From: a virus
Taxonomy: Duplodnaviria; Heunggongvirae; Uroviricota; Caudoviricetes
DNA length: 64,000 nucleotides
Direction: 5' to 3' (one strand)
IMG/VR virus record: IMGVR_UViG_2585427754_000004
Below, in pieces: positions 6,018 through 51,345 of this stretch. The position numbers and the translations under genes are program-made. The notes under the pieces are model-generated. The model was not told where the DNA came from. It worked only from the letters and a program-made list of their open reading frames with translations, and searched no databases. Numbering within the stretch: the stretch's first letter is position 1; every line of letters begins with the position of its first letter.

Positions 6018-6075
6018 GCCTGCTTCTGTATATATATAAATAATAAGTAACTTATTAAATATATACGGAAGCAGG
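6018..6075. repeat. AT-rich palindromic element of about 58 bp, copy 1
   Basis: GCCTGCTTCTGTATATAT ... ATATACGGAAGCAGG with AATAAGTAACTTATT at the centre; a near-identical element occurs at 51287..51345. Confidence 0.6.
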
Positions 6076-6182
6076 TCTTTTAAAAGACACCACCAGAACA
6101 AGTCCCTTCCGTTTCCACTTCCAAAAACTGCCACCAGTCGCTATCATCCGCTCATTGTGATAAGTAAGTAACTACCTACCAG

Positions 6183-6932
6183 GTGAGCCACATGAGCCAA
6201 ATCTTTTTCGATACCATCGACAACGACCAGTACGACTTCATGACAGAGTGGAATACCGCTGTTATGGACAAGTGGGTCGCTGAAAACATTGGTTTGTCGC
6301 GCTGTAAAGATGAGGCTGAACTCTTCGAGACGAAGTGGTTTGATTACCGCGACATGCATCCTCTGATGGCCACCTGTCTATTTACGGAGGCATACAAACG
6401 TCAGTACTCAAATATCATGCTGACGCACGGTCGCGAACACTTTGAAACAGCTCCGTTCACCACCGGGTTAAAACGCCTGCCTTATCAGGAGTTGTCGACT
6501 GCCAATAAAACGTCGCTATGGAAAGCACGCCAGTTTGCGGATCGCTATTGCTGCTCATACGACTACTTTATCTCCACCGTTCTTTCCGCAGCTGCACGAC
6601 GGCTGTGGGACAAGCTGCCGCGTCCGCAGCATTTGTGGCAGCCAGAACTGATTGAGATATTTGAAGATAAATTAGCCAGACGCGCAACAACCCGTCTGGA
6701 TGACTCTCTGGTTAGCTTTAAGCATATGGGAGACATGCAGTTCAACCCGATTCAGGAAAGCTATTTTGAGTGGATTCTGGAGCGTTTGCGCACCATCCCC
6801 CGCAGCAAGCGCATACGCGCAATTTTCTCCGCTATCTGGCTAATGGAAATCGTTCCAGAGCGCCTTATTTCCGCCCACTTTCCAGAAGAACTGGAAGAAG
6901 CACGGCGGTTTATTGATCCCCTATCTAATTAA
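6183..6932 (+). CDS. Hypothetical protein (immediately upstream of the helicase)
   Basis: 249-aa ORF with upstream TAAGTA palindrome motif; no recognisable motif. Confidence 0.35.
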   Translation: MSHMSQIFFDTIDNDQYDFMTEWNTAVMDKWVAENIGLSRCKDEAELFETKWFDYRDMHPLMATCLFTEAYKRQYSNIMLTHGREHFETAPFTTGLKRLPYQELSTANKTSLWKARQFADRYCCSYDYFISTVLSAAARRLWDKLPRPQHLWQPELIEIFEDKLARRATTRLDDSLVSFKHMGDMQFNPIQESYFEWILERLRTIPRSKRIRAIFSAIWLMEIVPERLISAHFPEELEEARRFIDPLSN

Positions 6933-6975
6933 CTAATACTAGAAAACAATTTGTTTAAAAAACAAAGGAAAGCAC

Positions 6976-8316
6976 ATGACCGAACTTTGCCATACAGGAC
7001 GCGGGCTGTCCGAAGAGTTTGATGAAGATTTTCAGAACAGATTGACGGCCTATTTTTGTCGTGATCACGAGTTTCTTACTCGTGCTGGAGATCTGGTTGT
7101 ACCTAGCCAATTTGCCAATGCGGCCAATGCCATATTGGTTAATATGGTTTCGGGCTATTACCGTATGTACAAGAGCGCGCCCTCTTCATCTGCGATTCTG
7201 GATATGCTTAAGCGTGCGAAACGCGATAAGACTATCCGTGAGGAACTATTCGCCGATGTTGTTGCTGCGTTTAAGCGCATCCTTGCAGAAAAATTGTCTG
7301 ATACCTCGTACATGGTTGACCAGGTATCAACCTTCGCAAAAAGTGTAGCGTTTGATGATGCTCTGATTAAGGCTGCTGAACTGAAAGAGAAAGGCGACTT
7401 TCAGGGGGCGATGGCAATCATGGCCAAGGTTCAGCAGATTGGATCGAACGAAGCGACCGGAATCTATGACTACTACACCTCCGCAAGTGAGCGATTGAAG
7501 GCGCGTGAATATGAGGCTTCAGAGGAGTATGTGCCAAACAGCATTACAACTGGACTCCCTCTGCTCGATAGGTTGCTGTACCAAAAAGGCTGGGCGAAGC
7601 GTGAAATGGTGCTCTTCATGGGGTTCGCTAAATCCGGTAAATCGACCGCAATGGGTGAGTTTTCCATAAACGCAACACTTGCTGGCTACAATGTTCTGTA
7701 TCTCTCGCTGGAGGTTCACACCACCATTTTATCCGACCGTTTTGATGCAAGATTGTCGGAGACAGAAATGTCCAAGCTGGTGGAACGGCGCGATGAGGTT
7801 CATCGTAAGTTGGCAGAGTTGGGAGCCACGAAGGGGATTGGTAGTTTGTGGGTGGTTGAGCGTCCGTCAGGAAGTATGTCACCGGCAGATCTGGACCGTA
7901 TGCTTAACAGCATGAAAGCCAACGGCATGGTACCTGACATGGTTGTTGTCGACTACGCAGATTTGATGCGTGCCAGTTATGACCTTCGTGATGATCGCGC
8001 CAACATTCGTAGTATCTACACCGATTTACGTGCTCTTTATGACAAGCATAACGTTGCTGGGATCACGGCATCGCAGACAAACCGTGAAGGTGGCGCGTCA
8101 GAAGTTGCCACAATGATGCACGCTGCCGACAACATCGAAAAAGTACGTATTGCTGACCTGGTAATAACGATCAACAAAACCGAAGAAGAAGAAGCGAAAG
8201 GAGAGGCTCGTCTCTACTTTGCTGGTTCACGTAACCAGCAGGGAGGGATCAGCATTCGCGTTAAACAAAACCTCGAACAAATGCGCTTCATTGAGCGAAT
8301 CTTAGACGTTACCTAA
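6976..8316 (+). CDS. DnaB-family replicative DNA helicase
   Basis: Walker A GFAKSGKST, Walker B VVVDYADLM, RecA-like C-terminal domain; conserved upstream AAACAAnTTGTTT motif and shared translation-initiation sequence. Confidence 0.7.
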   Translation: MTELCHTGRGLSEEFDEDFQNRLTAYFCRDHEFLTRAGDLVVPSQFANAANAILVNMVSGYYRMYKSAPSSSAILDMLKRAKRDKTIREELFADVVAAFKRILAEKLSDTSYMVDQVSTFAKSVAFDDALIKAAELKEKGDFQGAMAIMAKVQQIGSNEATGIYDYYTSASERLKAREYEASEEYVPNSITTGLPLLDRLLYQKGWAKREMVLFMGFAKSGKSTAMGEFSINATLAGYNVLYLSLEVHTTILSDRFDARLSETEMSKLVERRDEVHRKLAELGATKGIGSLWVVERPSGSMSPADLDRMLNSMKANGMVPDMVVVDYADLMRASYDLRDDRANIRSIYTDLRALYDKHNVAGITASQTNREGGASEVATMMHAADNIEKVRIADLVITINKTEEEEAKGEARLYFAGSRNQQGGISIRVKQNLEQMRFIERILDVT

Positions 8317-8325
8317 AAAATAAGC

Positions 8326-9579
8326 GTGGAGAACACCTCCACGCTTGATTCATTGGTGAAACAACTTTTCTTTTGCCAAACCACAAAAGAAAAACACATG
8401 AGCCTTTATGTTATATCAACATTTAGGTTGGTCACAATATTGCCTGTTAAAAGTGGAATTATCGTGAGCGAGCTGAAAGAGCTAATTACCGAATTAGATT
8501 TTGAACAATGGTTGGATACTGAAGGTATCGTTTATCGACGTGGAGGCGTGAGTACTCGCGGTCGTGAAGTGAATATCAAGGAGTGTCCGGTATGTGGCAG
8601 CTCCAACTGGAAGGTATATTTCAATCTGACCAGTGGCGTCGGTAAATGCTTCGCTGGTGATCATCCCGAAGAGATTCAGTTCAATAAGCTGGTCTTCCTC
8701 AAGCACTACAGCGGCAAATCACGACGACAGTTCGAGGAATATGTGCAGAACGCCCTTCTTTCCCAGGGGTGGGCACCAAAGAAAGAAGAGATAGTGCTTG
8801 CAAGCACAGTCGAGTTAGAGGGACCACTTGCACTCCCTCGTCATTACGAACTTCCTATAGATGGCCGTCTTCCAGACTATCTGGTTGAACGAAACATATC
8901 GCCTGAAATGGCAAAGTATTTTGACCTACGATACTGCGTCGAAGGCAAGCACGCTTATGTAGATCCGTATACAGATCAGGTTAAAGGACAGATATTCGAT
9001 ATGCGAATACTGATACCGGTTTACGATCTGGATGGGGTAATGAAGACATTTCAGGGGCGAGACATTACCGGTACAGCTGAACGTCGCTACCTCTTTCCTA
9101 TGCAGCTTCCAGCTTCAGGTAAGTTTCTCTACAACGGCCATAATGCGGTCGGCAAACAGACTGTAGTTGTCTGTGAGGGGGCGTTCGATGTTATGGGAGT
9201 TAAACGAGCTATTTTTGATGAAGAAACATTACGTGATTACGTGGAACCGATAGGAACGTTCGGGATGCATCTATCTGGTAACACCACTCAGGATGCAGAA
9301 GATCAGTTGGGCGCGTTCCTGACGCTCAAGGCGCGTGGATTACGTAATGTGATCATGATGTGGGATAGTGAAAAGCAAGCTATACGCAACACTATGGCCG
9401 CAGCCAGGCGACTGACCAGTATTGGTCTTAATGTCAAAGTAGCATGTTTGGGCGAGGAAGGACTCGACCCAGGCGATGCAACGCCAGAACAAATTATCAA
9501 AGCCTATTATCGGGCAAAACCGTATACCAAACAGTTGGAGTTGCAAAGCAAGGTTTTGGGCATTAAGGCGCTATCGTAA
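8326..9579 (+). CDS. DNA primase (zinc-binding plus TOPRIM)
   Basis: CPVCGSS ... KCFAGDH zinc-binding element, TOPRIM-like VVVCEGAFDVMGV; adjacent to the helicase. Start may be an internal Met. Confidence 0.6.
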   Translation: MENTSTLDSLVKQLFFCQTTKEKHMSLYVISTFRLVTILPVKSGIIVSELKELITELDFEQWLDTEGIVYRRGGVSTRGREVNIKECPVCGSSNWKVYFNLTSGVGKCFAGDHPEEIQFNKLVFLKHYSGKSRRQFEEYVQNALLSQGWAPKKEEIVLASTVELEGPLALPRHYELPIDGRLPDYLVERNISPEMAKYFDLRYCVEGKHAYVDPYTDQVKGQIFDMRILIPVYDLDGVMKTFQGRDITGTAERRYLFPMQLPASGKFLYNGHNAVGKQTVVVCEGAFDVMGVKRAIFDEETLRDYVEPIGTFGMHLSGNTTQDAEDQLGAFLTLKARGLRNVIMMWDSEKQAIRNTMAAARRLTSIGLNVKVACLGEEGLDPGDATPEQIIKAYYRAKPYTKQLELQSKVLGIKALS

Positions 9580-9654
9580 CAAGTGCCGCTAAAATAAGTA
9601 GATGATTACTTATCTTTCTGTAAGAATACTTTCATCTGTTAGCTAGGAGTTGGT

Positions 9655-10431
9655 ATGAAAGACGAAATTCAGAAATTAGCCTGCGACATCATTGATAAAA
9701 CTGGTTTAGAAATCAGCGAGAGCAATCGACTAGACATCATTGAAAAAGCGGTAAAAACAGCAATGGATCATATCGCCACTCGTTTGGTCGAGATCCCGCT
9801 ACCGGGGCTACCTTATCTGAAGGTTAAGTTACACGTATGGGGTGAACCTTCTTGTGCACGGCGTTCTGCATTAGTTGTTTTTATTAGCAAAGAAAACCCG
9901 CTCAGTCTTAAAGTGCAGGTTGGTGCATGGATGGATGGCAAAGTGATCTACACAAATACCGTTTTTTGTCTTTCAAACGACGAAACTATTGAAGCGGCCA
10001 TTCAAGAAGCAGTTCTAGCAATGCGCAGCAGCGGTTTGATGAAGAATAACTACGAAGAGTACTTGCGTTCGATAAGTGGTGAAAAGACATTATCTCTGAA
10101 AGCAGATTTCGTTACCCCGAAAAACCTGTTGGAAGTCTTGCTTAATAAAGGGGCTAATGATGCCGTAAATGTAATCAGAGAGAGTGAGTATGCGTCTCTT
10201 TGCGACATGTGCAAAAGCCAGTTGGATCTGGTGCATATCGTTATTGATGCTGGGAAGGCATGTGATGGCGTAATGGCGGAATTTGCTTGGAAGGTGGTCA
10301 GGATTGCTAACGAATTACCGATGATAGAGCAAGAGGCCAAATCATACGCCACCAATCATGTCACAGAGCTTCTTGTCCCCTATCGCTTAGAAAGCAATCA
10401 GCGCAAGATGGTTAGCTGGGGAAGTTGGTAA
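9655..10431 (+). CDS. Hypothetical protein
   Basis: 258-aa ORF in the replication block. Confidence 0.3.
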   Translation: MKDEIQKLACDIIDKTGLEISESNRLDIIEKAVKTAMDHIATRLVEIPLPGLPYLKVKLHVWGEPSCARRSALVVFISKENPLSLKVQVGAWMDGKVIYTNTVFCLSNDETIEAAIQEAVLAMRSSGLMKNNYEEYLRSISGEKTLSLKADFVTPKNLLEVLLNKGANDAVNVIRESEYASLCDMCKSQLDLVHIVIDAGKACDGVMAEFAWKVVRIANELPMIEQEAKSYATNHVTELLVPYRLESNQRKMVSWGSW

Positions 10432-10486
10432 TCTCTCCGCGCGTCGTTTTTTACGCAAATAATGATAGGTAAGTACAAGATTATTT

Positions 10487-10969
10487 ATGGCGGTAGTTGT
10501 GAAAGCTGATTTGTCAAAAATCCCTTCTATTTCAGGAAATAACGGTTATTCACTTCGTTGTGAGGAAGTAAAGATAAACGGTGAGTCGGCATATTGCAGC
10601 TATTCCGTTTGCCAGCACACCATTCTTGCCTTCAAAGAAAACCGTCTTCCTCGAACTTCTTTCCAGTCGTGCGCAACCGCTATTAAAGCAGGCAAATGCA
10701 AGGCGTTAAAAATGATGGTTGAAGAGATTCGTAAAGGAGAATCTCTGTATTTCGAAGATATGACCGCGCTCATTAAGGAGGTTGAAGAACGGAATAAACA
10801 AGCCAGAACTATAAAACGAAAACGTGACAGTGTAACGATTAATAGCATGGTTAAGAAGAGCACCACATCACAAACAGCGATCACTGACGTGTATGCGGCG
10901 TTGCTTGAAGAAACAACAAAAGAAACACATGAGCAAATCGATCAACATATGGAGGCAAAACAACAATGA
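10487..10969 (+). CDS. Hypothetical protein
   Basis: 160-aa ORF; stop overlaps the ligase start. Confidence 0.3.
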   Translation: MAVVVKADLSKIPSISGNNGYSLRCEEVKINGESAYCSYSVCQHTILAFKENRLPRTSFQSCATAIKAGKCKALKMMVEEIRKGESLYFEDMTALIKEVEERNKQARTIKRKRDSVTINSMVKKSTTSQTAITDVYAALLEETTKETHEQIDQHMEAKQQ

Positions 10970-12288: not shown

Positions 12289-12446
12289 TGCTCGGCTGGA
12301 TGATTGCATTTTTAGCAGTTGGTTTTTCATCGGTATTGTGGTGATGTCCAGTTGCATTAATGACTACATTAAAAACGGTGTTATAGAAAGACGAGGTCGC
12401 ATTTATCGCATTGTAGAAATAACCAACACCGTGAAGGAGATTAAGG

Positions 12447-12662
12447 ATGATCGTATTAAGTAAACGGGAGAAGGAAACGCTTCATGAAATCAGTAAGTGG
12501 CCGGAGTTCCCTGAGTACTGGAAGCCTAAAACGCGAGCTAAGTTAGAGCGGTTAGGGTTGGTTGCAAACGTTTCTGAAACGAAGTGTTCGGCCAACTACC
12601 AGTTAACTGATAAAGGGAAAGTATTGCTACAGCAATTAGTAGAATCAGGAGTGTTAAAATGA
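12447..12662 (+). CDS. Hypothetical small protein
   Basis: 71-aa ORF preceded by AAGGAG. Confidence 0.25.
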   Translation: MIVLSKREKETLHEISKWPEFPEYWKPKTRAKLERLGLVANVSETKCSANYQLTDKGKVLLQQLVESGVLK

Positions 12663-13097: not shown

Positions 13098-13875
13098 AAA
13101 CATCATGATAAGTATTTACTTACTTATCTTTTATGTATAAGATGACTTTGTTTTCGTTGAGACGCGACTGTTTGAACTTAAATACAAGTGCAAACGAAGA
13201 AGTCTATCTGGCAGTAGCCTAATAAGCCAAACACCAGCGAGGTCAGTTTCCAGCCTCGTTACCGAAATGGGACACACTGAGCGAGTGTGATTGCATAACG
13301 CAGGAGGGAACATTCATGTTCCCTCCGATGAAGTAACAGAATGGGCGGTTGGTATATTTTCAACTCCATATGACTCCCGGATTCTTAGCCACTGACCGCC
13401 CATCCTGTTACGTCATTTTGTTCAATTATGTCGTTTATACTGGGTTAAAAAGCGGCGACGTAGCCCGGCTGGTATGGTTAGCCAGCACACAACGTTGAGG
13501 CCATTACATTTTTATCAATTCTAAGGTTCTATTCACAGAGATACCGGCGAGCGTTGATATGTAACATGTTGGGCAAACATTCAATCGGAGTAGTGGCCTC
13601 AACGTTGTGAAGACAGGATTGTTGTGTAGGTTTAACCACTGTTGCCATTGGTGCCTGTTTTCACAACAAATGATTCCATACATCACATTGTATAAATTAC
13701 AAAGTAGGTGCTGTCCTCAGAAACATCATCTACTTAAAGATTTTGCCTTCTACTATTGAGCGAAGTCGAAAGCGTCTGGCACTAACGAAAAGTGCAAGTA
13801 GCGGTGCGTTTCCTGGCAGAAACTAAACCGTCGCGATTGGCACTGTTGAGTAATAAATACTGGCAGTGCTGAATT

Positions 13876-13950
13876 GATGGTGTAGCTCAGCGGTAGAGCA
13901 GTTGGCTGTTAACCAACTGGTCGGTGGTTCGAATCCACCCACCATCGCCA
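13876..13950 (+). tRNA. tRNA-Asn (anticodon GTT)
   Basis: Cloverleaf folded by hand: acceptor GATGGTG/CACCATC, anticodon loop CTGTTAA, T-arm GGTGGTTCGAATCCACC, discriminator G then CCA. Confidence 0.85.
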
Positions 13951-13955
13951 ATTTA

Positions 13956-14042
13956 GGGGAGTTAGTCCGTAGGGGCAGCGGGGTAGACTGTAAATCTACT
14001 GTCATTGCGACTCGGGTGGTTCGACTCCATCACTCCCCACCA
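13956..14042 (+). tRNA. tRNA-Tyr (anticodon GTA), type II with long variable arm
   Basis: Acceptor GGGGAGT/ACTCCCC, anticodon stem-loop GTAGA-CTGTAAA-TCTAC, T-arm GGTGGTTCGACTCCAT, CCA encoded. Confidence 0.8.
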
Positions 14043-14046
14043 AATT

Positions 14047-14122
14047 GCCGGTTTAGCTCAGTTGGTAGAGCGTCTGCCTTGTAAGCAGGATGTCAGCGGT
14101 TCGATCCCGTTAACCGGCACCA
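14047..14122 (+). tRNA. tRNA-Thr (anticodon TGT)
   Basis: Acceptor GCCGGTT/AACCGGC, D-arm GCTC ... GAGC, anticodon loop CTTGTAA, T-loop TTCGATC, CCA encoded. Confidence 0.75.
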
Positions 14123-14529: not shown

Positions 14530-14684
14530 GACACAGCGTTGAGCGGTTTGGCCTTTTAATCACCCAGATTAAGACTCCGCTAACATAAACCAGACCGCTC
14601 AACGCTGTGATAGACAATTACGGCAGACGTTCTTAACCATAGCTTGCTAACATCCTAGCAACACTTTTTTTCAGCGCAAAATTC

Positions 14685-14708: not shown

Positions 14709-14750
14709 CAACTGAAAGAGTCAAGTCTACGAACTTTGTAGGAAGAAATA

Positions 14751-15343: not shown

Positions 15344-15348
15344 TTTTA

Positions 15349-19804: not shown

Positions 19805-21040
19805 ATGACTACTACTGCACTGCAAAATGAAAAAAATCCTTCTGATTACCTTGTTTGCAAGTGGTGCGGAAAATCATTTCACTATTTTAAGTCCCATGTA
19901 GCCAATGGTAATTGCGAGGGCATTCCTGAGTCAGTAAAAGATGCCGATCCTGACACCGTACTGAAAATGTACACAACACAGTTTCCAGATGAGCCAACGC
20001 TATCGAAAAAGGCACTTGATGCAATTCAAGCTAAACGTGCCGAGCAAAAAAGCGAAATGGCCAAATCATCTGGCGTGACCAGTAGCCCAGGCTACACAGG
20101 CACAGTTGAGTACAAGACAGATCTGGTCGCAGCTCACGAACTGCTAAATGTAACGGTGAAAGAACTCGGAACAAAACGTGGGACGCCGCTCATGGTTAGC
20201 GTCAACGTCAATACGCCGTATCCAGAGTTCGTTCCAGAAGTGAAGAAGGGCTACGTATATGGCGACTTCGAACTGATCAAAGATATTTTCATGATGCTTG
20301 AACTTGGCATACCTGGCTATTTGTGGGGTCATGCAGGAACAGGCAAATCGTCATTGCCTACACAGCTATGTGCTTTGCTCAATCGTCCGTTGATCCGTGC
20401 CCAACATACAGCATCAATGGAAGAGGCACATGTTACGGGGCAAATTCTGGCGCGTGATGGCTCTACGTATTTCGAGCCTGGCTTGCTTGCGCTCGCAATG
20501 AAGCATGGCTGGGTTTACCTCGCGGATGAATACGACTTTGCGTTTCCACAAATTCTTGGCGTGTATCAGCCAGTGCTGGAAGGTGAGGCGTTGGTCATCA
20601 AAGAGGCAACTCCAGAATGGCGTCGCATTACTCCGCATGAACGGTTTGCTTTCATTGGCACTGGCAACACAAACGGTTCTGGTGATGAAACCGGCTTGTA
20701 CCAGGGTACAAACATCCAGAACGCCGCGAACTTTTCGCGTTTTGGCATCGTTTCGAATGTGAAATACATGAGCAAAGAGGCAGAGATCAACATGTTGATA
20801 AATGCCGGTATCGTGGATGAATACGCAGAAAAGATGGTTAAGTTTGCCGGTATCGTTCGCGATGGATACGAAGAACACCTTATCAGTCAGCCAATTGGCC
20901 CTCGTGAACTTTTGTTGTCGGCCAAGATTGGAATGATGCGAGGCGACTTTGTGACAGGTATTGAGCGTTCTTTCATTAACAAACTCCCTTCAGCTTCTGC
21001 ACAAGCGGCTCGTGAAGTTGTTCAAAAAATATTTGGTTAA
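19805..21040 (+). CDS. AAA+ ATPase (MoxR/CobS-like)
   Basis: Walker A GHAGTGKSS, Walker B VYLADEYD; N-terminal Cys/His cluster; directly follows the vWA gene. Confidence 0.6.
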   Translation: MTTTALQNEKNPSDYLVCKWCGKSFHYFKSHVANGNCEGIPESVKDADPDTVLKMYTTQFPDEPTLSKKALDAIQAKRAEQKSEMAKSSGVTSSPGYTGTVEYKTDLVAAHELLNVTVKELGTKRGTPLMVSVNVNTPYPEFVPEVKKGYVYGDFELIKDIFMMLELGIPGYLWGHAGTGKSSLPTQLCALLNRPLIRAQHTASMEEAHVTGQILARDGSTYFEPGLLALAMKHGWVYLADEYDFAFPQILGVYQPVLEGEALVIKEATPEWRRITPHERFAFIGTGNTNGSGDETGLYQGTNIQNAANFSRFGIVSNVKYMSKEAEINMLINAGIVDEYAEKMVKFAGIVRDGYEEHLISQPIGPRELLLSAKIGMMRGDFVTGIERSFINKLPSASAQAAREVVQKIFG

Positions 21041-24772: not shown

Positions 24773-25042
24773 GAATTATGGCGCTTGTTGAGGAAGTCAC
24801 TCCTCTTACGCACTTTGTTTTGCCATGCCGGCAGTTAGCTTCTGCCTTTGACTATTCATGCGGCAACCCCGCATTTCGCCACAATGGGCAATTCACTTTT
24901 ATGGAATAAACTGGCCGTTGTGTCGATTTAATTAGCATGGCCTTACCATGCTAATTTATTCAACTTGTACAATCCTGCAAATCTATCCACTCAGGCTTAC
25001 ACCGTCTTCGTTATTGTAGAAATGAGGATCATCAGCGTTGAA

Positions 25043-25258
25043 TCAGCTTAGAGCAACGACATTTGCTGCTGCTGGGCCTTTAGCCCCATTCTCGATAGAG
25101 AATTCGACCTGCTGGCCTTCTTCCAAAGTGCGGAAATTATTACTCTGAATTGCCGAAAAATGTACAAAAACATCTTTACTGCCATCAGCAGGAGAAATAA
25201 AGCCAAAGCCTTTATCAGAGTTAAACCATTTTACTAAACCAGTCATTTTATTAGACAT
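25043..25258 (-). CDS. Cold-shock protein (CspA family)
   Basis: [23 protein letters not shown] ... VFVHFSAIQ is near-canonical for a cold-shock domain with RNP1/RNP2 motifs. ATG at 25258 with SD; ORF track start at 25354 is probably too far upstream. Confidence 0.85.
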
Positions 25259-25587
25259 AGATATTACCTTCTTAATTTTGTGAGCCACATAGTGCGGCGA
25301 GAATTTGATCTGTATAGATTGGGACTTACTTAGGCACTTAAGGAGGAGACTCACGAAGAAGGGAAATCAGAAGATAACACTGAACTGAGACTGCTTTACT
25401 AAAACTGCTTACATAAGGTCTGTCTTGCAAACCAACGATGCTATTAACGCATACCCCTTCTTTTCATGCAACCTTTATTTTTCAAAGATAACTAATTTTT
25501 GTCACCATTGGTTTAGTAAACGTTAACGAACCAGACGATGCCAGACACCTTTACAGAGAACAGATGCCCGCCAATTGGCGGGCATCA

Positions 25588-27122: not shown

Positions 27123-27239
27123 TTTTTGATAGATAATAAGTAAGTACTGATCTATCATTTAACAGCTCGAAAGAGCCACGAATGAACGAAAGCCCAACGC
27201 GCATAGCGCCATCGGCCAAATCACAACAAGGAGAAACAC

Positions 27240-30646: not shown

Positions 30647-30708
30647 TATATTGAAAATGTATAAGCACTTACTTATCATTAGCACACAATAACCACATAG
30701 GAAAACAC

Positions 30709-31758: not shown

Positions 31759-31785
31759 CAGGCGTCCAGTTGGACGCCTTTTTTA
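31759..31785 (+). terminator. Rho-independent terminator (AGGCGTCC family)
   Basis: AGGCGTCC-agtt-GGACGCCT followed by TTTTTT. Confidence 0.7.
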
Positions 31786-31834
31786 TCGCAATTATCTTAT
31801 TAAGAAAACAATTTGTTTAAAAGGATAAGAAAAC

Positions 31835-32591: not shown

Positions 32592-32806
32592 GTTTACAGT
32601 AAAATTTATATAAGTTAGTATCTACCTATCATGAAGATTTTTATTGAATACTTGTTACTCATCGTTTCAATAGCTTTTGTCATCGACTGCATTTTCACTG
32701 GTGTCATTCGTAAAGTCTTTTCCCCGGTGCACGACGTAGTCATAAACGCTTTGGCTATCGTGCTCGTATTTAATTCAGCATTTGATGTAATCAAAGAGGT
32801 GGCAGC

Positions 32807-33360: not shown

Positions 33361-33843
33361 CAACCACTGCGGTGAGTAGTCTGCTCACCGCATTCGTATC
33401 CAGCTCATTATCCACTGTAGTCAGTAACAAAACCTTCCTACATATCTGCTAACCACTGTAGCGAGTAGACAGCCTTTCATTCGCATCAAACAACCACTAT
33501 GGTGAGTATTGGAGTGAGATGTCCAGCGGGTATCCACTATGGTGAGTAAGCCTTTGCTGTTTTCAGTGGATATCCACTCGCCACAGTGGATACGCTCAAA
33601 GATGAGGGCGACAACAACCACTATAGACAGTAAATTTTCCAAGATACCCAGTGACCACTAACCTCGCAGCCCTTGTTTCATCAGTGTTAGTGATCACTAA
33701 CATTTAATTCAGTATTTGCATTCTACTGCCTACAGTGGTTATCAACAGATAACGATACTCACTATAGTGGATAGCGAATTACAGATATAAGTAAGGCTCA
33801 CTACAGTGGATAGTGAGCCTTACTACTAACTACAGTGGTTGGG
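33361..33843. repeat. Iteron array downstream of repA (about 10 copies, both orientations; incA-like copy-control candidate)
   Basis: Repeated AACCACTRTGGTGAGTA / CTAYAGTGGWT units, e.g. at 33363, 33446, 33492, 33530, 33614, 33757, 33795, 33828. Confidence 0.6.
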
Positions 33844-34899
33844 CTATTTGCGAGTCTTTGCCTTGCGCAACTCTTCGAGAAGCGCCAGTTCTTCTTTACT
33901 CAACATGACCATTTTGCCTTCTTTTTCGTCAGGCACAACGTCGATAATGTCATCTTGATTCTCATCTGGGAGGCTATATTCCGTCTCATCATTATCGATT
34001 TTTGTTGATATTTGTGCCTGGCGTAACTTTGGCCGCCTATAGTGGATGACGAAGTAGACCGAGTTTCCGCGCTTAACTTCCGTGTAATCGAGATATCCTA
34101 TCTCTCGCAGCTGTTCCATAGCCTTTCTTACCGTCGCATTCTGAGTAATAGTGCGACTTGTCAGATTAAGTCTGGCGCGTAAACGGGCTAGTGATATTGG
34201 TGCCGGATCAGGCGGCAAACTTTCAATAAAAGTATAAAGCGCCTGAGCGGATTCTTTTCTTGAGAGTTCGTTTATAGCCCGGAGTTGCAGAAGAACCTTT
34301 TTGTCGAACTGGTAGAGTTCGAAAATCTTGGGATCTGCTTTCAGTTCGACCGTATCGTGCTTGACACTATATTTTGCCGTTTGCACAAGATGCGTTACGT
34401 AAAACTCATCAGAGCCTTTGCTACGGAACGAGATGGTATTTGTGGCAATACGGCTTAGCGAACTGTCCAGGCGTTTGCGTAACTTCGCTGATGACCTGGC
34501 GGTCGGAATGCCACACAGCCTTACAAACTCAACGAACGGCAACGTGACAGTATCGCCAACGACCTTGTGTTTGGCAAACGCGTGGATTATTCCCACCCAC
34601 GTTTTAAAGTCGTTATCCATATCAAGCCGAAGGCCAGAGATCCTTATGTCTTCGTACCCTTCGGCTTTTGCCAGAGACAGCTGTTTGAGTTCAGCAGAGG
34701 CATCCATAGAGACCATTTGCCCCTTTCTTCCTCTGGATGTCGATTTCAGCGTCGGAACGAAGAGGCCCAGACGCATCAAAGCAACAGGCTGAACAGTGTT
34801 ATTAGTGTTAGGAACCAACGTAACAACTTCGCCTGTCTTTTTATCTGTTTCTGAAAATGCTTCAACGATCGCTATGTTTTTATTGCCGTTTTCGCTCAT
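33844..34899 (-). CDS. repA: Iteron-type plasmid replication initiator (RepA-like)
   Basis: 351 aa with winged-helix-like C-terminal region; flanked on both sides by iterons of the same sequence family; DnaA box and GATC cluster upstream. Confidence 0.55.
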
Positions 34900-34987
34900 T
34901 CCAAATGTCTCTTGTTATTCGACGGCTTTGGTGGCCTTTGCTGATTACAGTGGATAGTAGCACTCATCACAGCGGTTATCCTACCGT

Positions 34988-35059
34988 CTATAGTGGTTTT
35001 TCTCCTCTCTATAGTGGTTGCTTTGCTCCCTATAGTGGATTATTCGCTCTCTATAGTGG
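34988..35059. repeat. Four direct iterons (CTATAGTGG core) at exact 21-bp spacing upstream of repA
   Basis: Core starts at 34988, 35009, 35030, 35051. Confidence 0.7.
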
Positions 35060-35173
35060 ATATCGATCATGTCTGAAGGCAGATGGCACAACGGTTTGAG
35101 GTTGGCGGGGATCTTATTGGGTCTTTATGGGTCTCTTTGGTTCTCTTTGTGATCTGAATTACTGGATCGGGCC

Positions 35174-35182
35174 TGTGGATAA
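35174..35182 (-). promoter_or_regulatory. DnaA box (TTATCCACA on minus strand)
   Basis: TGTGGATAA on the plus strand is a perfect 9-mer consensus; two 8/9 matches nearby (35221..35229, 35548..35556). Confidence 0.5.
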
Positions 35183-35345
35183 AAATCAGAGGATTTCAAG
35201 AACAGGTAACTCTACTCTTCTGTGGATATTTAAGGACATAAGAATCATGACTAAGAGTAGAGTTTAAAATATATCTATTTATATCAGTATGTTAATGAAG
35301 AATTAAGTCATTAAGTTATCCATAAAAGACAATGTGCTCTACTCT

Positions 35346-35440
35346 CTACAGTGGATATATACAGCTCTCCAGAGTGGTTGTTTTACTCTTCATAGCGGTT
35401 ATTCAGCTCTCTACAGAGGTTTCTTTGCTCTCCATAGTGG
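35346..35440. repeat. Second array of five iterons at about 21-bp spacing
   Basis: CTACAGTGG, CAGAGTGG, CATAGCGG, CTACAGAGG, CATAGTGG cores at about 35346, 35369, 35390, 35411, 35432. Confidence 0.6.
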
Positions 35441-36287: not shown

Positions 36288-36541
36288 CCCTCCAGATCGT
36301 ATATTGGCGTAGATAGAATCTACGCCCCCTCAAAATAGCTCTCATAGCGTTCTACAGTGATCCTGTCTTATTTTTAGTCATACAGACAAGCAAAGTTGCG
36401 CCACGATAAATAGGTATATACTTACTTATAAATTTTGTATATTAAGGCGCTCGTTTCATTCCTAACATACCGTTATGCATAGTTGTTTACCTCCTCATTG
36501 CTCTTAGAATTTGTATCAAAATAACCACAAAGGAAAAACAC

Positions 36542-41085: not shown

Positions 41086-41118
41086 TTTCATTGATAGGTA
41101 AGTGCTTATCTATTAACA

Positions 41119-43474: not shown

Positions 43475-43479
43475 CATAT

Positions 43480-43510
43480 GGTGGGGTATATCCCCACCTT
43501 ATCTTTGATT
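43480..43510 (+). terminator. Terminator hairpin after nrdA
   Basis: GGTGGGG-tatat-CCCCACC followed by a T-rich run. Confidence 0.6.
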
Positions 43511-43574
43511 TGTAAGCCTTGTTTAAACACATAAGATAACAACTTGTTTAAACACATCAAAAAAGGAAAAACAC

Positions 43575-44717: not shown

Positions 44718-44794
44718 ACCGATACAAAGCATTATGTGGCCTGGCAACGCTGGGCCACAATGGATCACAAGAATTAAGAAGGAACAAAACTAGC

Positions 44795-45664: not shown

Positions 45665-45732
45665 TTGTAGGTAGTTATCTATCTGTGTATATTTAACATG
45701 CGTAATAAAACTCTGGAATGACTATTCGTTTT

Positions 45733-45758
45733 GGTGGCCTATGGCCACCATTTTTTTA
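45733..45758 (+). terminator. Rho-independent terminator
   Basis: TGGTGGCC-tat-GGCCACCA followed by TTTTTTT. Confidence 0.7.
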
Positions 45759-45834
45759 TCTGTCTGGTCTTGTTCTCTCAATGAATGTAAACTCACACGA
45801 TGAATAAGTAATTACTTATCTTTGTGAGGTTTTT

Positions 45835-46938
45835 GTGTCACTCCTTTTGAATCGAGAGCATACGAACGGTCAGGTAACAAACGCATCGTATGCAAAAGTT
45901 ATTGAGACGGTGCTTAAAAGCGGCGTGCAGGCTGATGATCGCACAGGCACTGGTACTTTAAGCACCTGCTACGTTCCCTCTTACTACATGCTTACTGGTG
46001 GGACTGTGCCGCTTATTTCTGGAAAGGCGGTAAATCTTAAGCCACTACTTGTCGAACTTGAGTGGTATCTGAAAGGCACGGGCAACATCCAATTTCTCAA
46101 GGATAACGGCGTTAAGATTTGGGATGCATGGGCCGATGAGAATGGCGATTTGGGGCCGGTTTACGGTAAGCAGTGGCGTCGATGGGAAGATACCCGCATC
46201 GTGAGCCATAGTGAATATCTGAGCAAGATCGCTACTTTCCGTGAACGCGGGTACAAAGTCGAGGGATACCTGGGTATCAGTGAAGATCGCGTAGTGCTGT
46301 CCCGTGAAATCGATCAGCTACAGCGTATTGTCGATACACTGCGCACGAACCATACCGATCGTCGCATCATGCTTAACGCATGGAACGTAGGCGAGCTTGA
46401 GGATATGAAACTGCCACCTTGCCACTTTGTCTTCTCTTTGTGGAGTCGTGAGCTGGATTTTGAAACCCGTTTAACGATGGCAACTGACATTGGTCTTCAA
46501 CACAGTCGCCTCGGTTACGAGTCTATCTACACCAAGATGCTATACGATCTGGAGATGGACGGCAGTGTTACTGAAGCTGAACTGGATGAACTTGGAATCC
46601 CCAAACGCATCCTCAACTCCTGCCTCGTACAGCGTAGCGTAGACACTTTTGTTGGTATGCCATTCAATATTGCTGGCTATGGCATTCTCACTCATTTTCT
46701 CGCGAAGATTACGGGTCACATGGCCGGTGCATTTGTGCATTTTGGCTTTGACGTGCATTTGTACAACAACCACATGGAAGGTGTGTGTGAGCTAATGAAA
46801 CGACAGGCTCCAGAGCATTCAGATCCGGTCGTTATTTTCCCTCATGAATGGTCAGAGTTGGATGATTTCAAATGGGACGAGGTTTTAATTCTTGGCTATG
46901 ACCCTCTACCGTGGATCAAGGTTCCAGTGGCGGTGTGA
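45835..46938 (+). CDS. thyA: Thymidylate synthase (ThyA family) with two internal insertions
   Basis: DRTGTGT, catalytic PPCH, QRSVD ... PFNIAGY (Asn indicates dUMP specificity), DVHLYNNHMEG and C-terminal GYDPLPWIKVPVAV. GTG start. Confidence 0.8.
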   Translation: MSLLLNREHTNGQVTNASYAKVIETVLKSGVQADDRTGTGTLSTCYVPSYYMLTGGTVPLISGKAVNLKPLLVELEWYLKGTGNIQFLKDNGVKIWDAWADENGDLGPVYGKQWRRWEDTRIVSHSEYLSKIATFRERGYKVEGYLGISEDRVVLSREIDQLQRIVDTLRTNHTDRRIMLNAWNVGELEDMKLPPCHFVFSLWSRELDFETRLTMATDIGLQHSRLGYESIYTKMLYDLEMDGSVTEAELDELGIPKRILNSCLVQRSVDTFVGMPFNIAGYGILTHFLAKITGHMAGAFVHFGFDVHLYNNHMEGVCELMKRQAPEHSDPVVIFPHEWSELDDFKWDEVLILGYDPLPWIKVPVAV

Positions 46939-46939
46939 T

Positions 46940-47353
46940 ATGGCAAGAGGTATGTATGTCTTATGCGAAATTGAAGGTGTGCTGGCAAATGCCAGCCATC
47001 GTAAATCAGTATCTGACGCGGATGCAGGCCAGCTCATTGCCGGTGATGAACTCATTTTCCCCACCAGCCGTATGTTGCGTGGTTTTGCTCGCTCAGGGGC
47101 TGAAGTGGTGCTTATCAGTAGCCGCTCTGAAACTCTTGAAGCGCCAACTAAACGATGGCTGAAAGATTTTGGCGTTGATTATGACTGGCTTCATCTTGTA
47201 CCGAATGGCACCAGTTATGAGAAGCATATTAAGCGCACATTAGCGGAGCATAAAGGCGATCTGCTTATCGCTGCGCTGGTGCACGATCCTCGACTCCGTG
47301 CCGCTTTAGCCGACTCTCACCATCGACCGGTCATCTATGAGGTGAGCAAATGA
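46940..47353 (+). CDS. Hypothetical protein
   Basis: ORF between thyA and the DHFR gene; start set at first ATG after the thyA stop. Confidence 0.3.
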   Translation: MARGMYVLCEIEGVLANASHRKSVSDADAGQLIAGDELIFPTSRMLRGFARSGAEVVLISSRSETLEAPTKRWLKDFGVDYDWLHLVPNGTSYEKHIKRTLAEHKGDLLIAALVHDPRLRAALADSHHRPVIYEVSK

Positions 47354-47826
47354 AGATGATCGCTGCTGTTGGCCGTAACTATGAGATCGGCATAGCGAAT
47401 GAACTCCCCTGGCGTTGTTCTACCGATCTGAAGCTATTTAAGAGACTCACCAAAAACGCCACTGTCGTTATGGGGCGTAAAACGATGGAAAGTCTCAAAC
47501 GCCCTCTTCCAGAGCGTCATAACCTCGTTTTGACGCGCTCTCATGGCTTTGTACCAAATGGATTCTACCCTGCTGGTGTGGATGATGTGTTGCGATTACC
47601 AGAGCCTGTGTGGGTGATTGGCGGGGAACAAATTTACTCGCTATTCATGCCGCATGTTGAAGAGATTTGGCTCTCCCACATCGGCGTTGATGTACCAAAC
47701 GCCGATGCATTCTTCCCGGCAAGCATGATGCGTAACTTAGGCTTTGTGCCTGTTGAAACAGCTTATACCCAACGAGCCAGCGAGGAAGAGCCTGGCTTTT
47801 CGCAGATCGTATACAGAAGGTCGTAA
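47350..47826 (+). CDS. Dihydrofolate reductase
   Basis: MIAAVGRNYEIGIANELPW ... VMGRKT ... VWVIGGEQIY matches the DHFR fold signature; 158 aa. Confidence 0.8.
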   Translation: MKMIAAVGRNYEIGIANELPWRCSTDLKLFKRLTKNATVVMGRKTMESLKRPLPERHNLVLTRSHGFVPNGFYPAGVDDVLRLPEPVWVIGGEQIYSLFMPHVEEIWLSHIGVDVPNADAFFPASMMRNLGFVPVETAYTQRASEEEPGFSQIVYRRS

Positions 47827-48470
47827 TGGATTACCGGATTGGGATCACTGGTGCTCAGGGCAGTGGGAAAACAACCCTGGCAAAATATATCGACAAACAT
47901 TACGGAATCCCTTACGTGGATGCTGGTGTCGGAAGTTTGATGAGCCGCCTCGGTGTTCGAGTAGGTGAGTCTATGCCTCTATATGAGCGGCTTCAGATTC
48001 AAATGGAAATAGCAAAGCATATAGAGCTACTTACGCGTGGTGTTGAAGGCTTTGTTATCGATCGCACACCTGCTGATGTTATGGCCTACACGTTGGATTT
48101 GGTCGGCCATACCAATGAAGATCGATGTATTGAGTTAGCCCTCGATATCGAAAAGTTTTGCCACAAAACTGCTATTTCAAACTTTAACGCCATTGCTGGC
48201 TTACGCCCGGGAGTCGCTCTCTCAGAGCGAGATTACTTGCGATCACAACGAGCATCATTAGACCGTCTGTATGTCGCTCGTATTGATGCGTTGATGTGCG
48301 GGGAACTGACAAAAATTCACCTGCATCCGCAAAGGGGGGATCTGCAAACCTTCGTCGTTTCCAACCGATATCGCACGGTTGAAGCAAGAGCCAGATCAGT
48401 GATGAGAATGCTAGATAACGCTGTAGAAAAGATAGAAAACCGGTTCTGTGGCCGAGTGACCGTTCATTAG
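47826..48470 (+). CDS. P-loop nucleotide kinase-like protein (dNMP kinase candidate)
   Basis: N-terminal Walker A GITGAQGSGKTT; sits in the nucleotide-metabolism block. Confidence 0.45.
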   Translation: MDYRIGITGAQGSGKTTLAKYIDKHYGIPYVDAGVGSLMSRLGVRVGESMPLYERLQIQMEIAKHIELLTRGVEGFVIDRTPADVMAYTLDLVGHTNEDRCIELALDIEKFCHKTAISNFNAIAGLRPGVALSERDYLRSQRASLDRLYVARIDALMCGELTKIHLHPQRGDLQTFVVSNRYRTVEARARSVMRMLDNAVEKIENRFCGRVTVH

Positions 48471-48531
48471 AAATTGTTCGCCTCTTCGACATTGCGACAA
48501 TAAAACTCTCAAAATGGGTTAAGGATAAAAA

Positions 48532-48951
48532 ATGTTTAGTGAAATGTTGCTTGAAGATGAACTGGATCGGAAAACAACAGAGGCTTTGATTCGTGTAGCG
48601 GACGAACATTCCCGGTCGCTTATGAGCGATCGAGAGGCTCGTCTGGCTATTCGTGCCATATTCGAAACTGCGCAGGGGCTTGTTGGCGCACAAGTAGGTG
48701 AAGCCATTAACATCGCCATGTCTCAGTTCAGTGAAGACAGTAAAAAGCCTCTGTTTCCTATGCATTTGATGCTGGCTGGTGGCACGGTGCTTTATATCTC
48801 TGTTTGTCTGGATAGCAACCAAATCAATATTCTCAACACTGCGTCAGGTAAGTGGAAAGATCCGATTGTCTGTGAAACCAGTGAAGAAACTTTGAAAAAA
48901 GCGGCTCAATTTGTACGTAGCGCACTACTTAAGGGCGCTAAGAAGTTGTAA
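48532..48951 (+). CDS. Hypothetical protein
   Basis: 139-aa ORF. Confidence 0.3.
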   Translation: MFSEMLLEDELDRKTTEALIRVADEHSRSLMSDREARLAIRAIFETAQGLVGAQVGEAINIAMSQFSEDSKKPLFPMHLMLAGGTVLYISVCLDSNQINILNTASGKWKDPIVCETSEETLKKAAQFVRSALLKGAKKL

Positions 48952-48960
48952 GGAGTTCTG

Positions 48961-49518
48961 ATGACAACGATTGTTGCAGGCATCGATATCGAGTCTACGG
49001 GACTGGATTTCCTTGCTGGTCATAAAATTATTGAAATCGCAATTACCCGCTATGAACTGGAGACACAGAGACATATTGATAGTCTGGAGATGCGTTTTAA
49101 CCCTCGCAGAAACATAGATCCGAAAGCTCAAGCCGTTCATGGCATTTCATTAGAACAGCTCGCAGCTGAACCTTTGTTGTCAAATCATGCCAGCGAAATT
49201 GGCGCTTATATGGGGGCATGTAGTGCGTGGATTGCTCATAACGGCGAAGCGTTTGATATACCATTTATTCGACACGAGTTTTCAGGGTATGGAGTAAGAC
49301 TGCCAGACGTTCCCGTTATAGATACTATGTTATCGGGATTGTGGGCCACAGAAGACGGTAAACGTCCTCGCCTTGAAGAGTTGGCCTTCTCTCTTGGCTT
49401 TATATACGATCATGCCAAAGCACATAGTGCCTTATATGACACAAACTTAATGATGCAATGCTTCTTTAAGGCACGTAATAAGTACGGATTTTTTAAATTA
49501 CCCTCTGAAATTGTGTAA
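48961..49518 (+). CDS. DnaQ-like 3'-5' exonuclease (DEDDh family), likely proofreading partner of DnaE
   Basis: Exo I GIDIESTGL, Exo II AHNGEAFDIPF, Exo III HSALYDT. Confidence 0.75.
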   Translation: MTTIVAGIDIESTGLDFLAGHKIIEIAITRYELETQRHIDSLEMRFNPRRNIDPKAQAVHGISLEQLAAEPLLSNHASEIGAYMGACSAWIAHNGEAFDIPFIRHEFSGYGVRLPDVPVIDTMLSGLWATEDGKRPRLEELAFSLGFIYDHAKAHSALYDTNLMMQCFFKARNKYGFFKLPSEIV

Positions 49519-49678
49519 AACAAAAGCCTACTTTAAAGAGAGTTTAAAGTAGGCTTTCTTTTAAAGAACAGCCGCCTTTCAATCATTTCCTGCCTGTATT
49601 TAATACTTTTCCGCCTGATAGGTTTAGTCAAAATGTAGCTATCGAAACGCAAATGTAACCAAGCAGAAGGAGACTTAC

Positions 49679-50488
49679 ATGAGTTCGGTTGAAAATGTAA
49701 TGACAAATGATGATCTGGACGAGCTGACAGCCATGTTGCAATCACTTGATGAACCAGTAAAAAAAGCCGCACAGGTTGAAAATACTGATGATATTGACGA
49801 TCTGCTGCTCGGCCTCGATGCTGGCGTAGCCATGAGTTCTGATGATGTTGCCGAAGAACTGTTCAATGAAGAAAAAGCAGGTGATTTCAGCTCTGCTTTA
49901 AATGAGTTGGAGTTAGCGCATGAGCCTATAAACGTAATTAACGCTGAAAGTGTTGAATCTGCCGAAAACGAGCCAGAACAATTGGGATTGATTGAGGTTG
50001 AAGAGTGTGTTGATGTTAATGATGAATTAAAAGTTCAACAGTCAAATGATAGCAACACAAATAAAAAAGCGCGTACTGCAAGAGGTCCTCGTTTTACTTT
50101 AAGTGATAAAGATGATTCGTTTTTCAATAAAGCAGGCTTAGAAACAGATATTTTCTTAGACGCTTACGAAAACGCGCCTGTCAAAGCAAAGGATAAGATA
50201 TTAAACCTTCTTAATTGGTTTAGCGGAGGTCCAGATATTAGTGTTTACACGGTAATTTCCATGAGACACCTTCTCACAGAAAAGAAGGCTACAAGTAATA
50301 GTATTAAGATTGCTTTAATGAGCAATCCAGAAAAACCGTATCCGCTTAACACTGCGTCAACTCAGGCTGGGCAAATGATGGCTGTATTTCCAGCGACAGG
50401 AATTGCCGTTAGAGACGGTGGAAATCTAACATTGAACGAAGAATCACCGATCGTTAAGAAGTTTGTAGCGGAGTACACTATTGGATGA
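49679..50488 (+). CDS. Highly acidic hypothetical protein
   Basis: N-terminal 120 aa dominated by Asp/Glu; 269 aa. Confidence 0.3.
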   Translation: MSSVENVMTNDDLDELTAMLQSLDEPVKKAAQVENTDDIDDLLLGLDAGVAMSSDDVAEELFNEEKAGDFSSALNELELAHEPINVINAESVESAENEPEQLGLIEVEECVDVNDELKVQQSNDSNTNKKARTARGPRFTLSDKDDSFFNKAGLETDIFLDAYENAPVKAKDKILNLLNWFSGGPDISVYTVISMRHLLTEKKATSNSIKIALMSNPEKPYPLNTASTQAGQMMAVFPATGIAVRDGGNLTLNEESPIVKKFVAEYTIG

Positions 50489-50671
50489 CGTCCCCCTACT
50501 GAAAATAAAGCCCATAGAGAGCTTTATAGTGCTGGGTAAGCCAATCACATATCCAGCACCACAAAAACGCGCCAGAGAGCTTCTCGTTTGCATTTCTGGC
50601 GCGTTTTATTTGATTGCCAGACATAAAATCAAATGCAAAAATAGGTAATCACTTACCTATCGAGAAAGACG

Positions 50672-51265
50672 ATGATTGCAGCCGAAAAAATCAAACAGCG
50701 AAAGCGCGACAACTCTCTTCGTGACCTCTGGAGAACACCTGACTGGCTGTTTTCTGCCATTCAACGTTATCTTGGAGTGACATTTGATGTTGACGTTGCC
50801 TGCAACAAGGACAATGCGAAGCTGCCTAATTTCATAGGCGTTGAGCGTGATGCTTTGAAATCTGAATGGGGACAGCCAGGTACAATTGCCTTCCTCAATC
50901 CACCCTACTCCAAAATCTCCCCCTGGATTGATGCGGCTATACGTGAGCAGGCTCGCGGAGTTACAACAGTGATGCTAATTCCTCAATCCCTCGATACAAA
51001 GTGGTATGAGCGTGCAACAGAGTGTGCGAATGAGACGATTATTCTGTCTGGTGGCCGCGTAGCGTTTGTCGAGCCTGACGTCAATTTGGGTCAGGTAGAA
51101 GTAAACATCAACCCCGGTGGCAGTATGCTCGTTGTTTTTCGAGGATTTTGTCAGGACGCTGGGCACTCTATAAGCAAGATCCCTTTGGATGTCATGAAAA
51201 GTCTGGGAGGGTATGATCCTGCGAATGTGATCAGGAAAAAAAGACCATCAAAGAAGGCTGCTTAG
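50672..51265 (+). CDS. Small phage-type DNA N6-adenine methyltransferase
   Basis: Motif IV NPPYS in a roughly 190-aa protein. Confidence 0.55.
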   Translation: MIAAEKIKQRKRDNSLRDLWRTPDWLFSAIQRYLGVTFDVDVACNKDNAKLPNFIGVERDALKSEWGQPGTIAFLNPPYSKISPWIDAAIREQARGVTTVMLIPQSLDTKWYERATECANETIILSGGRVAFVEPDVNLGQVEVNINPGGSMLVVFRGFCQDAGHSISKIPLDVMKSLGGYDPANVIRKKRPSKKAA

Positions 51266-51286
51266 TTTGTTCTGGCGTCTGTAATT

Positions 51287-51345
51287 AGCCTGCTTCTGTA
51301 TATATAAATAACTACATATTAATTATTAATATACGGAAGCAGGCT
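51287..51345. repeat. AT-rich palindromic element, copy 2 (also a likely terminator)
   Basis: AGCCTGCTTCTGTATATA ... TATACGGAAGCAGGCT followed by TGTTTTA; near-identical arms to the element at 6018..6075. Confidence 0.6.

Follow-up and report, generated by a model that had tools for sequence, protein, structure and literature searches.

Three near-identical long palindromes of SSU5-like phage-plasmids as candidate transcription terminators

The phage-plasmid N15 carries telRL/tos, a palindrome of ~56 bp flanked by further inverted repeats, and T4-type phages reportedly carry mobile regulatory cassettes, the PeSL (promoter-early stem-loop) units that Arbiol et al. are said to have described in 2010. 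The RNase III sites of the T7 type are highly similar to one another (PMC11707656). Together with the intrinsic terminators of enterobacterial phages and plasmids, these are the systems to which we compare a long intergenic palindrome found twice (c1 and c2) in a 64,000-nt stretch of Caudoviricetes DNA (IMG/VR record IMGVR_UViG_2585427754_000004; the window), with a third copy (c3) elsewhere in related genomes. Our preferred reading, held with moderate confidence, is that the c1/c2/c3 family are + strand factor-independent terminators that insulate operons; termination is best supported at c1, plausible at c2 and doubtful at c3. In the literature on the arm sequence, on SSU5 or pHCM2 palindromes and on packaging ends, we found no published description of the element.

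The c1 copy is a palindrome of 57 nt (6019-6075, + strand; CCTGCTTCTGTATATATATAAATAATAAGTAACTTATTAAATATATACGGAAGCAGG), and c2 one of 55 nt (51289-51343, + strand), or 59 nt (51287-51345) when flanking AG/CT pairs are counted, giving (AG)CCTGCTTCTGTATATATAAATAACTACATATTAATTATTAATATACGGAAGCAGG(CT). A preliminary description, made from the sequence alone, had placed two such palindromes at 6018..6075 and 51287..51345, and both are there with the arms it quoted. The exact 14-nt arm pattern matches the window four times, at the four arms and nowhere else; with up to two mismatches allowed there are five sites against 1.15 expected, the fifth having two mismatches. As + strand RNA, c1 folds with -28.1 kcal/mol (z -7.2) and c2 with -29.4 kcal/mol (z -5.8), in neither case equalled by any of 200 shuffles. 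The fold consists of an 18-bp, GC-clamped stem, a 5/1 internal loop and, above it, a 7-bp helix, the top being AT-rich; a hairpin scan ranks both copies among the longest near-perfect hairpins of the window. The GC-rich stem base, CCUGCUUC/GGAAGCAGG, provides the stable stem-loop expected of an intrinsic terminator. At arm position 9 the left arm has T and the right arm G, which gives a G-U pair on the + strand. Also as first described, the c1 loop holds a TAAGTA-class palindrome, AATAAGTAACTTATT (6042-6056); it has the TAAGTA half-site of the dispersed operator-like palindromes treated below, but at closer spacing.

Each window copy runs into a U-rich tail, on the + strand only; the reverse-strand tails are not U-rich. 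The c1 tail, TCTTTTAAAAGAC (6076..6088), has a tail score of 2.57, at the 98th percentile of window 15-mers, and the c2 tail, CTGTTTTATATC (51344..51355), one of 1.72, at the 90th percentile. The SSU5 counterparts score 3.16 (c1) and 2.23 (c2).

Judged by its identity to Escherichia phages PhiR41_1, Cyrano (pLF82) and CMS-2020a (98%) and to Salmonella phage SSU5 (~80%), the window is part of an E. coli SSU5-like phage-plasmid of ~108 kb. Looking for more copies, as had been proposed, turned up c3 in the 45 kb that the window does not cover, at 20583-20637 of PhiR41_1 locus L005, between an open reading frame (ORF) of 88 amino acids (aa) and the probable small-terminase gene (terS), so that there are three copies per genome; SSU5 has all three. 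An arm-pattern scan of viral contigs gave 120 loci, which with the window and earlier loci make 127 elements, and all 127 fall into three syntenic intergenic classes. Members of the c1 class precede genes for a conserved 246-aa protein, a DnaB-like helicase and a primase, with syntenic copies in SSU5 and >30 relatives. The c2 class, likewise syntenic in SSU5 and relatives, lies between a Dam-family methyltransferase gene and a 76-aa ORF, with RNase H next; in the window, the N6-adenine methyltransferase gene (50672..51265, + strand) has its stop codon 24 nt before c2. Those of the c3 class stand in front of terS, terL and the portal gene, 118-133 nt from terS across genomes. Alignment of the paralogues shows that the element begins a few bases past the stop codon of the upstream + strand gene, and the next gene starts ~85-120 nt after each copy. 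The gene adjoining c1 has a homologue in 937 PLSDB plasmid records, and the SSU5-like plasmids are circular in the records.

Expression data bear on c1. In RNA-seq of a lysogen of Cyrano, which is 98% identical to the window over the regions compared, the + strand genes 5' of c1 are expressed at 49.8 (ParA), 89.1 (CYRAN_29) and 54.6 (CYRAN_30), and CYRAN_31, the 246-aa gene 3' of c1, averages 6.2 against a median background of 9.8 (PMC9928086, supplementary file 2). The step across c1 is ~9-fold in the lysogen, and under other conditions expression falls from log2 8.6-10.4 to 2.6-4.2, or 50-100-fold (PMC9928086). The only hairpin visible in the 194-bp gap between CYRAN_30 and CYRAN_31 is c1. 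At the level of genes, this drop speaks against read-through at c1, read-through of both elements being what the preliminary description had named as contrary to its proposal; nothing flanking c2 and c3 is expressed in lysogens, so that the RNA-seq is uninformative there. The proposal itself was of strong RNA terminators. Its + direction is supported at c1 by the tail and the Cyrano drop and is plausible at c2 from the tail, while "strong" goes too far for elements with a marginal classical score, one of which (c3) lacks a U-tract.

From the anatomy, copy number, synteny and tails, and the gene-level drop at c1 in a close relative, we infer a termination mechanism, and likewise what c2 does and what, if anything, c3 does. 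The GC-clamped base, once transcribed along with the U-rich tail after it, would form a hairpin that frees the transcript, and constitutive plasmid and cargo genes (the par operon, toxin genes) would thereby be kept from reading into repressed lytic genes. Shielded downstream would be the replication operon (c1), the 76-aa ORF and RNase H gene (c2), and terS with the structural genes (c3). The copies would resemble one another because they descend from one duplicated unit that included the flanking motifs and perhaps a promoter, and they would be homogenised now and then by recombination.

Distant relatives were reached by gene-anchored searches that do not depend on the arms, in which a profile of the 246-aa protein was run against 185,579 genomes and Dam and TerS served as anchors in viral contigs, and they have unrelated terminator-type hairpins at equivalent places; a scan of viral contigs with the Xenorhabdus-type arm pattern gave almost only chance 14-mer matches. 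The Aeromonas c1 is a plain GC hairpin with a U-rich tail, ATTTCATT. A Klebsiella lineage, at ~52-72% amino-acid identity, has canonical GC terminators beside degenerate or half palindromes at both c1 and c2. At the Xenorhabdus and Morganella c1 loci the right arm also pairs with a downstream TGCTCCC (GGGAGCA...TGCTCCC), after which comes a U-rich tract, U8 in Xenorhabdus and UUUCUUUC in Morganella; the Morganella c1 keeps this hairpin and tract, yet shows no left arm in the ~340 nt upstream that were examined. A hairpin with a U-rich tract thus appears to have been re-invented repeatedly at c1 across lineages, as expected if termination is the selected function there.

The arms themselves differ by lineage and are shared by the paralogues within it. 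They read CCTGCTTCYGTATA in the main lineage and are mostly GCCGTGCTCCCATA-like at the Xenorhabdus and Morganella loci, and a Xenorhabdus-like c2 copy (L310) has the arm GCCTTGCTCCCATA; such sharing can reflect gene conversion or a common trans-acting factor. In Acinetobacter the c1-equivalent is an AT-rich palindrome between two copies of ACTTGGG and two of CCCAAGT (L129 1310-1440, L145, NZ_CP115638.1 79381-79483), and the c3-equivalent is a weaker element with the lineage's own operator-like palindrome in its core.

The similarity between paralogues reaches past the palindrome, to (G)TCTGG(G) 10-25 nt upstream and CCCAGA(C) 15-25 nt downstream, with a second CCCAGA-type copy further downstream at c2 and c3. 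At c1 of the window, TTCTGGG (5991..5997, + strand), found by alignment, is the left half of a weak outer inverted repeat with CCAGAA (6093-6098) as its partner. By eye, about 10 of 16 unrelated upstream flanks of c1 have TTCTGGG ~15-25 nt ahead of the hairpin. At c2, the motif CTCCCAGAC (51361..51369, + strand) is followed by a second copy, TTCCCAGAC (51402-51410), and preceded on the 5' side by an inverted partner, GTCTGGGAG (51201-51209), these three being the only exact 9-mer matches in the window, and by a degenerate proximal TTCTGG (51270-51275). An outer helix of 11 bp can be drawn at the SSU5 c2 (p ~0.02 against shuffled flanks); at both window copies and most others the outer helix does no better than with shuffled flanks. 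We therefore set aside GTCTGGGAG/CTCCCAGAC as a conserved RNA pairing, p values of ~0.02-0.1 being reached only at the SSU5 c2, the L310 c2 and the Acinetobacter c1-equivalents. The CCCAGAC-type flank is a recurring motif, not a proven helix.

On its upstream side, c1 adjoins sequences that show no relation to one another across relatives until ~25 nt before the hairpin, and its downstream side is conserved. Since the two flanks behave in this way, c1 does divide a cargo hotspot from the replication module. The preliminary suggestion of module boundaries is accordingly supported for c1 and not for c2 and c3, which have both flanks conserved. In the window, the cargo abutting c1 is a lineage-specific GIY-YIG (LEM-3-like) gene of 255 aa (5140..5907, - strand); elsewhere it is a DUF2971 gene (SSU5), a 267-aa ORF (Cyrano) or other genes in further relatives. 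The GIY-YIG gene, inserted in reverse and absent from SSU5 and Cyrano at this place, possibly encodes a free-standing homing endonuclease.

Several observations weigh against termination as the function of the whole family. The RNA-seq evidence is per gene, not from mapped 3' ends, and covers c1 only. In the window c1 follows a minus-strand gene, with no adjacent + strand gene to terminate, and the par operon has its own terminator hairpin (5091-5125), so that here c1 could only block stray or antisense + strand transcription; in SSU5 and Cyrano c1 follows a + strand gene. By the classical d'Aubenton-Carafa rule (energy per length plus T-tail, calculated by hand) c1 and c2 are marginal, because the stem is long and AT-rich. 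The c3 copies of relatives lack a U-tract, with tail scores of 0.85-2.3, as do some c1 and c2 relatives, and the c3 of the SSU5/Klebsiella type has a stem longer by ~6 pairs and no free U tail. The stem also varies in ways that do not suit a pure terminator. Position 9 in 61 unique sequences is T.G in 23, C-G in 18, T-A in 10 and C.A in 10, the arms varying independently, and main-lineage stem changes are mostly single uncompensated mismatches, with only two compensated changes (L275 position 8, C-G to T-A; L276 position 6, T-A to G-C). By fold energy c1 does better as the + strand, c2 as the - strand and c3 equally well as either, so that there is no consistent bias. Finally, the c1 and c3 of the E. 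coli lineage match at 55 of 55 positions, those of the SSU5 lineage do not, and the SSU5 record (NC_018843.1) is linearised inside c3, 133 nt before terS. Two arguments were dropped: the G-U asymmetry at position 9 as a sign of + strand RNA, given independent arms in the less biased sample and no consistent strand bias, and the conservation of the arms between window and SSU5 as a special constraint, given that an ordinary terminator 700 bp upstream is equally conserved.

A tentative alternative, which we hold to be unlikely, takes the palindromes as DNA-level cis sites, bound by a phage protein or acting as cruciforms or single-strand hairpins, with termination incidental. Such sites could be a pac/cos-type site at c3 with c1 and c2 related to it, a lytic-replication or priming site for the DnaB-like helicase and primase, or partition or silencing sites. 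The SSU5 record begins and ends in the c3 palindrome (...GTGACTTATTA / AATATATACGGAAGCAGG..., L152 2963-3000 and L151 1-18) with no bases lost or duplicated. This start reflects either a physical DNA end or an assembly that broke at a hairpin repeat with three copies; Cyrano starts at the same point, and may well copy SSU5, and another phage record starts at a gene ATG. The lineage-specific arms common to paralogues fit a bound site, and so do the flanking motifs, which are repeated both directly and inverted (TCTGGG...CCCAGAC with a second CCCAGAC; the doubled Acinetobacter motifs) in the manner of protein sites. The lack of a U-tract at c3, the absence of a consistent strand bias, and two ParB_N-domain genes with an ABC-type ATPase gene just upstream of c3 point the same way. 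However, with three near-identical copies a unique packaging cut would be impossible unless specificity came from flanking determinants, and on this count a unique cos/pac site was rejected; c1 and c2 are not beside terminase genes, and the TerL, of Terminase_6N/Terminase_3 type, does not discriminate between packaging modes. A DNA site is also hard to square with palindromes that have decayed in one lineage beside canonical terminators, or with the Morganella c1, where hairpin and tract outlast the left arm. The plasmid origin lies elsewhere, in the Rep_3 region.

The hairpins might instead be RNase III processing sites, or sites stabilising mRNA 3' ends, in polycistronic lytic transcripts, termination being partial or secondary; we find this doubtful for the family, c3 being its best fit. 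RNase III needs double-stranded RNA of ~25 bp, and the 18-bp AU-rich helix, small internal loop and 7-bp upper helix amount to that size. The similarity among a few intergenic hairpins recalls the T7-type sites (PMC11707656), and the longer c3 stem of the SSU5/Klebsiella type, which has no free U tail, points the same way. The sharp drop at c1 in the lysogen suggests a transcript end, although cleavage followed by decay of the downstream RNA would look alike when measured per gene.

An extension of the DNA-level idea would make the palindromes a coordinated set of recognition sites for one phage protein (TerS, a ParB_N-domain protein or the 246-aa protein), with c3 the start of packaging or replication and with the arms and CCCAGAC-type motifs co-evolving with that protein across Enterobacteria, Xenorhabdus/Morganella and Acinetobacter; we consider this improbable. 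Very unlikely, finally, is a reading in which the element serves mainly in recombination, as a short repeated regulatory cassette where cargo genes are swapped and whose palindrome is kept for module shuffling: the wholly different upstream flanks of c1, with homology resuming ~25 nt before the hairpin, the c1/c3 identity confined to the E. coli lineage, which suggests gene conversion, the half copies in the Klebsiella lineage and the paralogous similarity running into the flanking motifs all speak for it, but each genome has just three copies, every one at a fixed syntenic position, both flanks of c2 and of c3 are conserved, no presence/absence polymorphism or target duplication was seen, and a variable region beside a terminator is expected anyway, insertions there being harmless. 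For the recombination sites or cruciforms of the preliminary description, the c1/c3 identity and truncated copies in other lineages are the only hints. A DNA-level role, RNase III processing and recombination are not mutually exclusive. A plasmid vegetative origin at c1 or c2 was discarded because the iterons and the Rep_3 initiator gene that they flank are far from both, at 33.4-35.4 kb.

Downstream of c1 the window has a promoter-like sequence, TTCCAA-17 nt-TATCAT (6119-6147, + strand), a candidate recognised by eye and conserved across relatives, at which a promoter scan of the window made no call. It is followed by a TAAGTA-class operator-like palindrome (6159-6180, + strand), also conserved across relatives, and by the 246-aa gene (6192-6932, + strand), which heads the helicase/primase operon. 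The operator-like palindromes, of ~18-22 bp with a consensus near GATAAGTA-NN-TACTTATC or GATAGGTA...TACCTATC, have at least 13 copies in the window; besides that at 6159-6180 they are at 9590-9617, 10462-10487, 13104-13131, 27132-27159, 30656-30678, 32611-32632, 36410-36433, 41093-41114, 45796-45823, 50640-50661, 52855-52876 and 57820-57847. Read by eye, with some checked against ORFs, they are mostly intergenic and near gene starts, and they are probably sites of the phage repressor or another global regulator. A comparable palindrome, TCAGTCAnTACTGACTGA, is dispersed in the Acinetobacter relatives. The window also has a different dispersed palindromic motif, GAAAACAAGTTGTTT, placed before parA, before the helicase gene and elsewhere (4007-4034, 6927-6958, 31785-31828, 43518-43564, 53758-53779, 54460-54495 and 59019-59050), and PhiR41_1 has two copies of it between c3 and terS (L005 20674-20715); this motif may serve one class of genes as a promoter or activator site.

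Just before terS in PhiR41_1 (L005 20709-20745) there is a GC hairpin, AGAGCGCATGGACGCGCTCT, followed by GTGTGTTTT, and this arrangement is conserved across relatives. The hairpin resembles a terminator placed in the leader of the late operon, and as such would hint at antitermination control of the late genes. The two ParB_N-domain proteins and the ABC-type ATPase are encoded right upstream of c3 and the terminase genes (L005 17384-19394; SSU5_125-129), an arrangement conserved as far as the Acinetobacter phage-plasmids.

Elsewhere in the window, the plasmid replicon (33400-35440) contains a Rep_3-family initiator gene (33844-34899, - strand) with 21-bp iterons bearing CTATAGTGG on both sides, four plus three in direct orientation at 34967-35440 and inverted ones at 33403-33824. 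Three adjacent tRNA genes (13876-14119, + strand) have just 3' of them a long inverted repeat (14532-14609), whose GC-rich arms of 19 bp (CACAGCGTTGAGCGGTTTGG... / ...CCAGACCGCTCAACGCTGTG) are separated by 38 nt; the repeat is unrelated to c1 and c2. A full-length match to the Rfam cspA thermoregulator (25018-25436, - strand; 185.7 bits, E 2e-49) implies a phage-borne cold-shock gene with its 5' untranslated region.

Among clinical E. coli, Klebsiella and Salmonella, phage-plasmids of the SSU5-like kind are common. If the hairpins insulate, they define where toxins, nucleases and resistance genes can insert safely, and would explain the cargo hotspot upstream of c1. If they are DNA sites, they point to the start of packaging or of lytic replication in the SSU5-like family. 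Three near-identical 55-bp palindromes could plausibly break short-read assemblies; several contigs end near an element, and the palindromes may explain why the SSU5 reference is linearised inside one copy.

Among described systems, Rfam offers no family for the element: at the gathering threshold nothing in the window falls on it, and in three relatives searched at E<=1 the only hit to it is a chance-level mir-1277 (E 0.53). With telRL/tos of N15 the likeness is in form only, no sequence similarity having been noted and a protelomerase gene not having been searched for; a telomere-resolution site was set aside on the grounds of circular records and of three copies in each genome. Like the PeSL, the element is a repeated intergenic stem-loop with regulatory sequence, and c1 borders a hyperplastic region of swapped genes; unlike them, it occurs only three times, at fixed positions, with c1 alone next to a variable region, and the promoter within the unit is putative. 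There was no evidence of excision circles or mobility, and the element is not a many-copy mobile cassette of the PeSL kind. The T7-type RNase III sites are likewise a small family of mutually similar hairpins of ~50-60 nt with two helices and an internal loop, located between genes of polycistronic phage transcripts; the element has the double-stranded RNA of at least ~20 bp, internal loop and intergenic position of such a site, but it has no sequence similarity to them and no Rfam match, and there are U-rich tails at two of its three sites. Intrinsic terminators of enterobacterial phages and plasmids differ in that the present elements are much longer (55-57 nt), have an AT-rich upper half, come in three near-identical copies per genome, include one copy (c3) without a U-tract, and score marginally by the classical rule; the window's ordinary terminator-like hairpins (such as 49523-49557, 50564-50607 and 62171-62209, the latter two GC-rich) are shorter and each is unique in sequence. 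Shared with the intrinsic terminators are the GC-rich base, at c1 and c2 the U-rich tract, in one direction, a place between a co-oriented stop codon and the following promoter region at c2 in the window and at c1 in SSU5 and Cyrano, and the gene-level fall in expression across c1 in a close relative. The element is most likely a previously undescribed member of this familiar class, working most like an intrinsic terminator.

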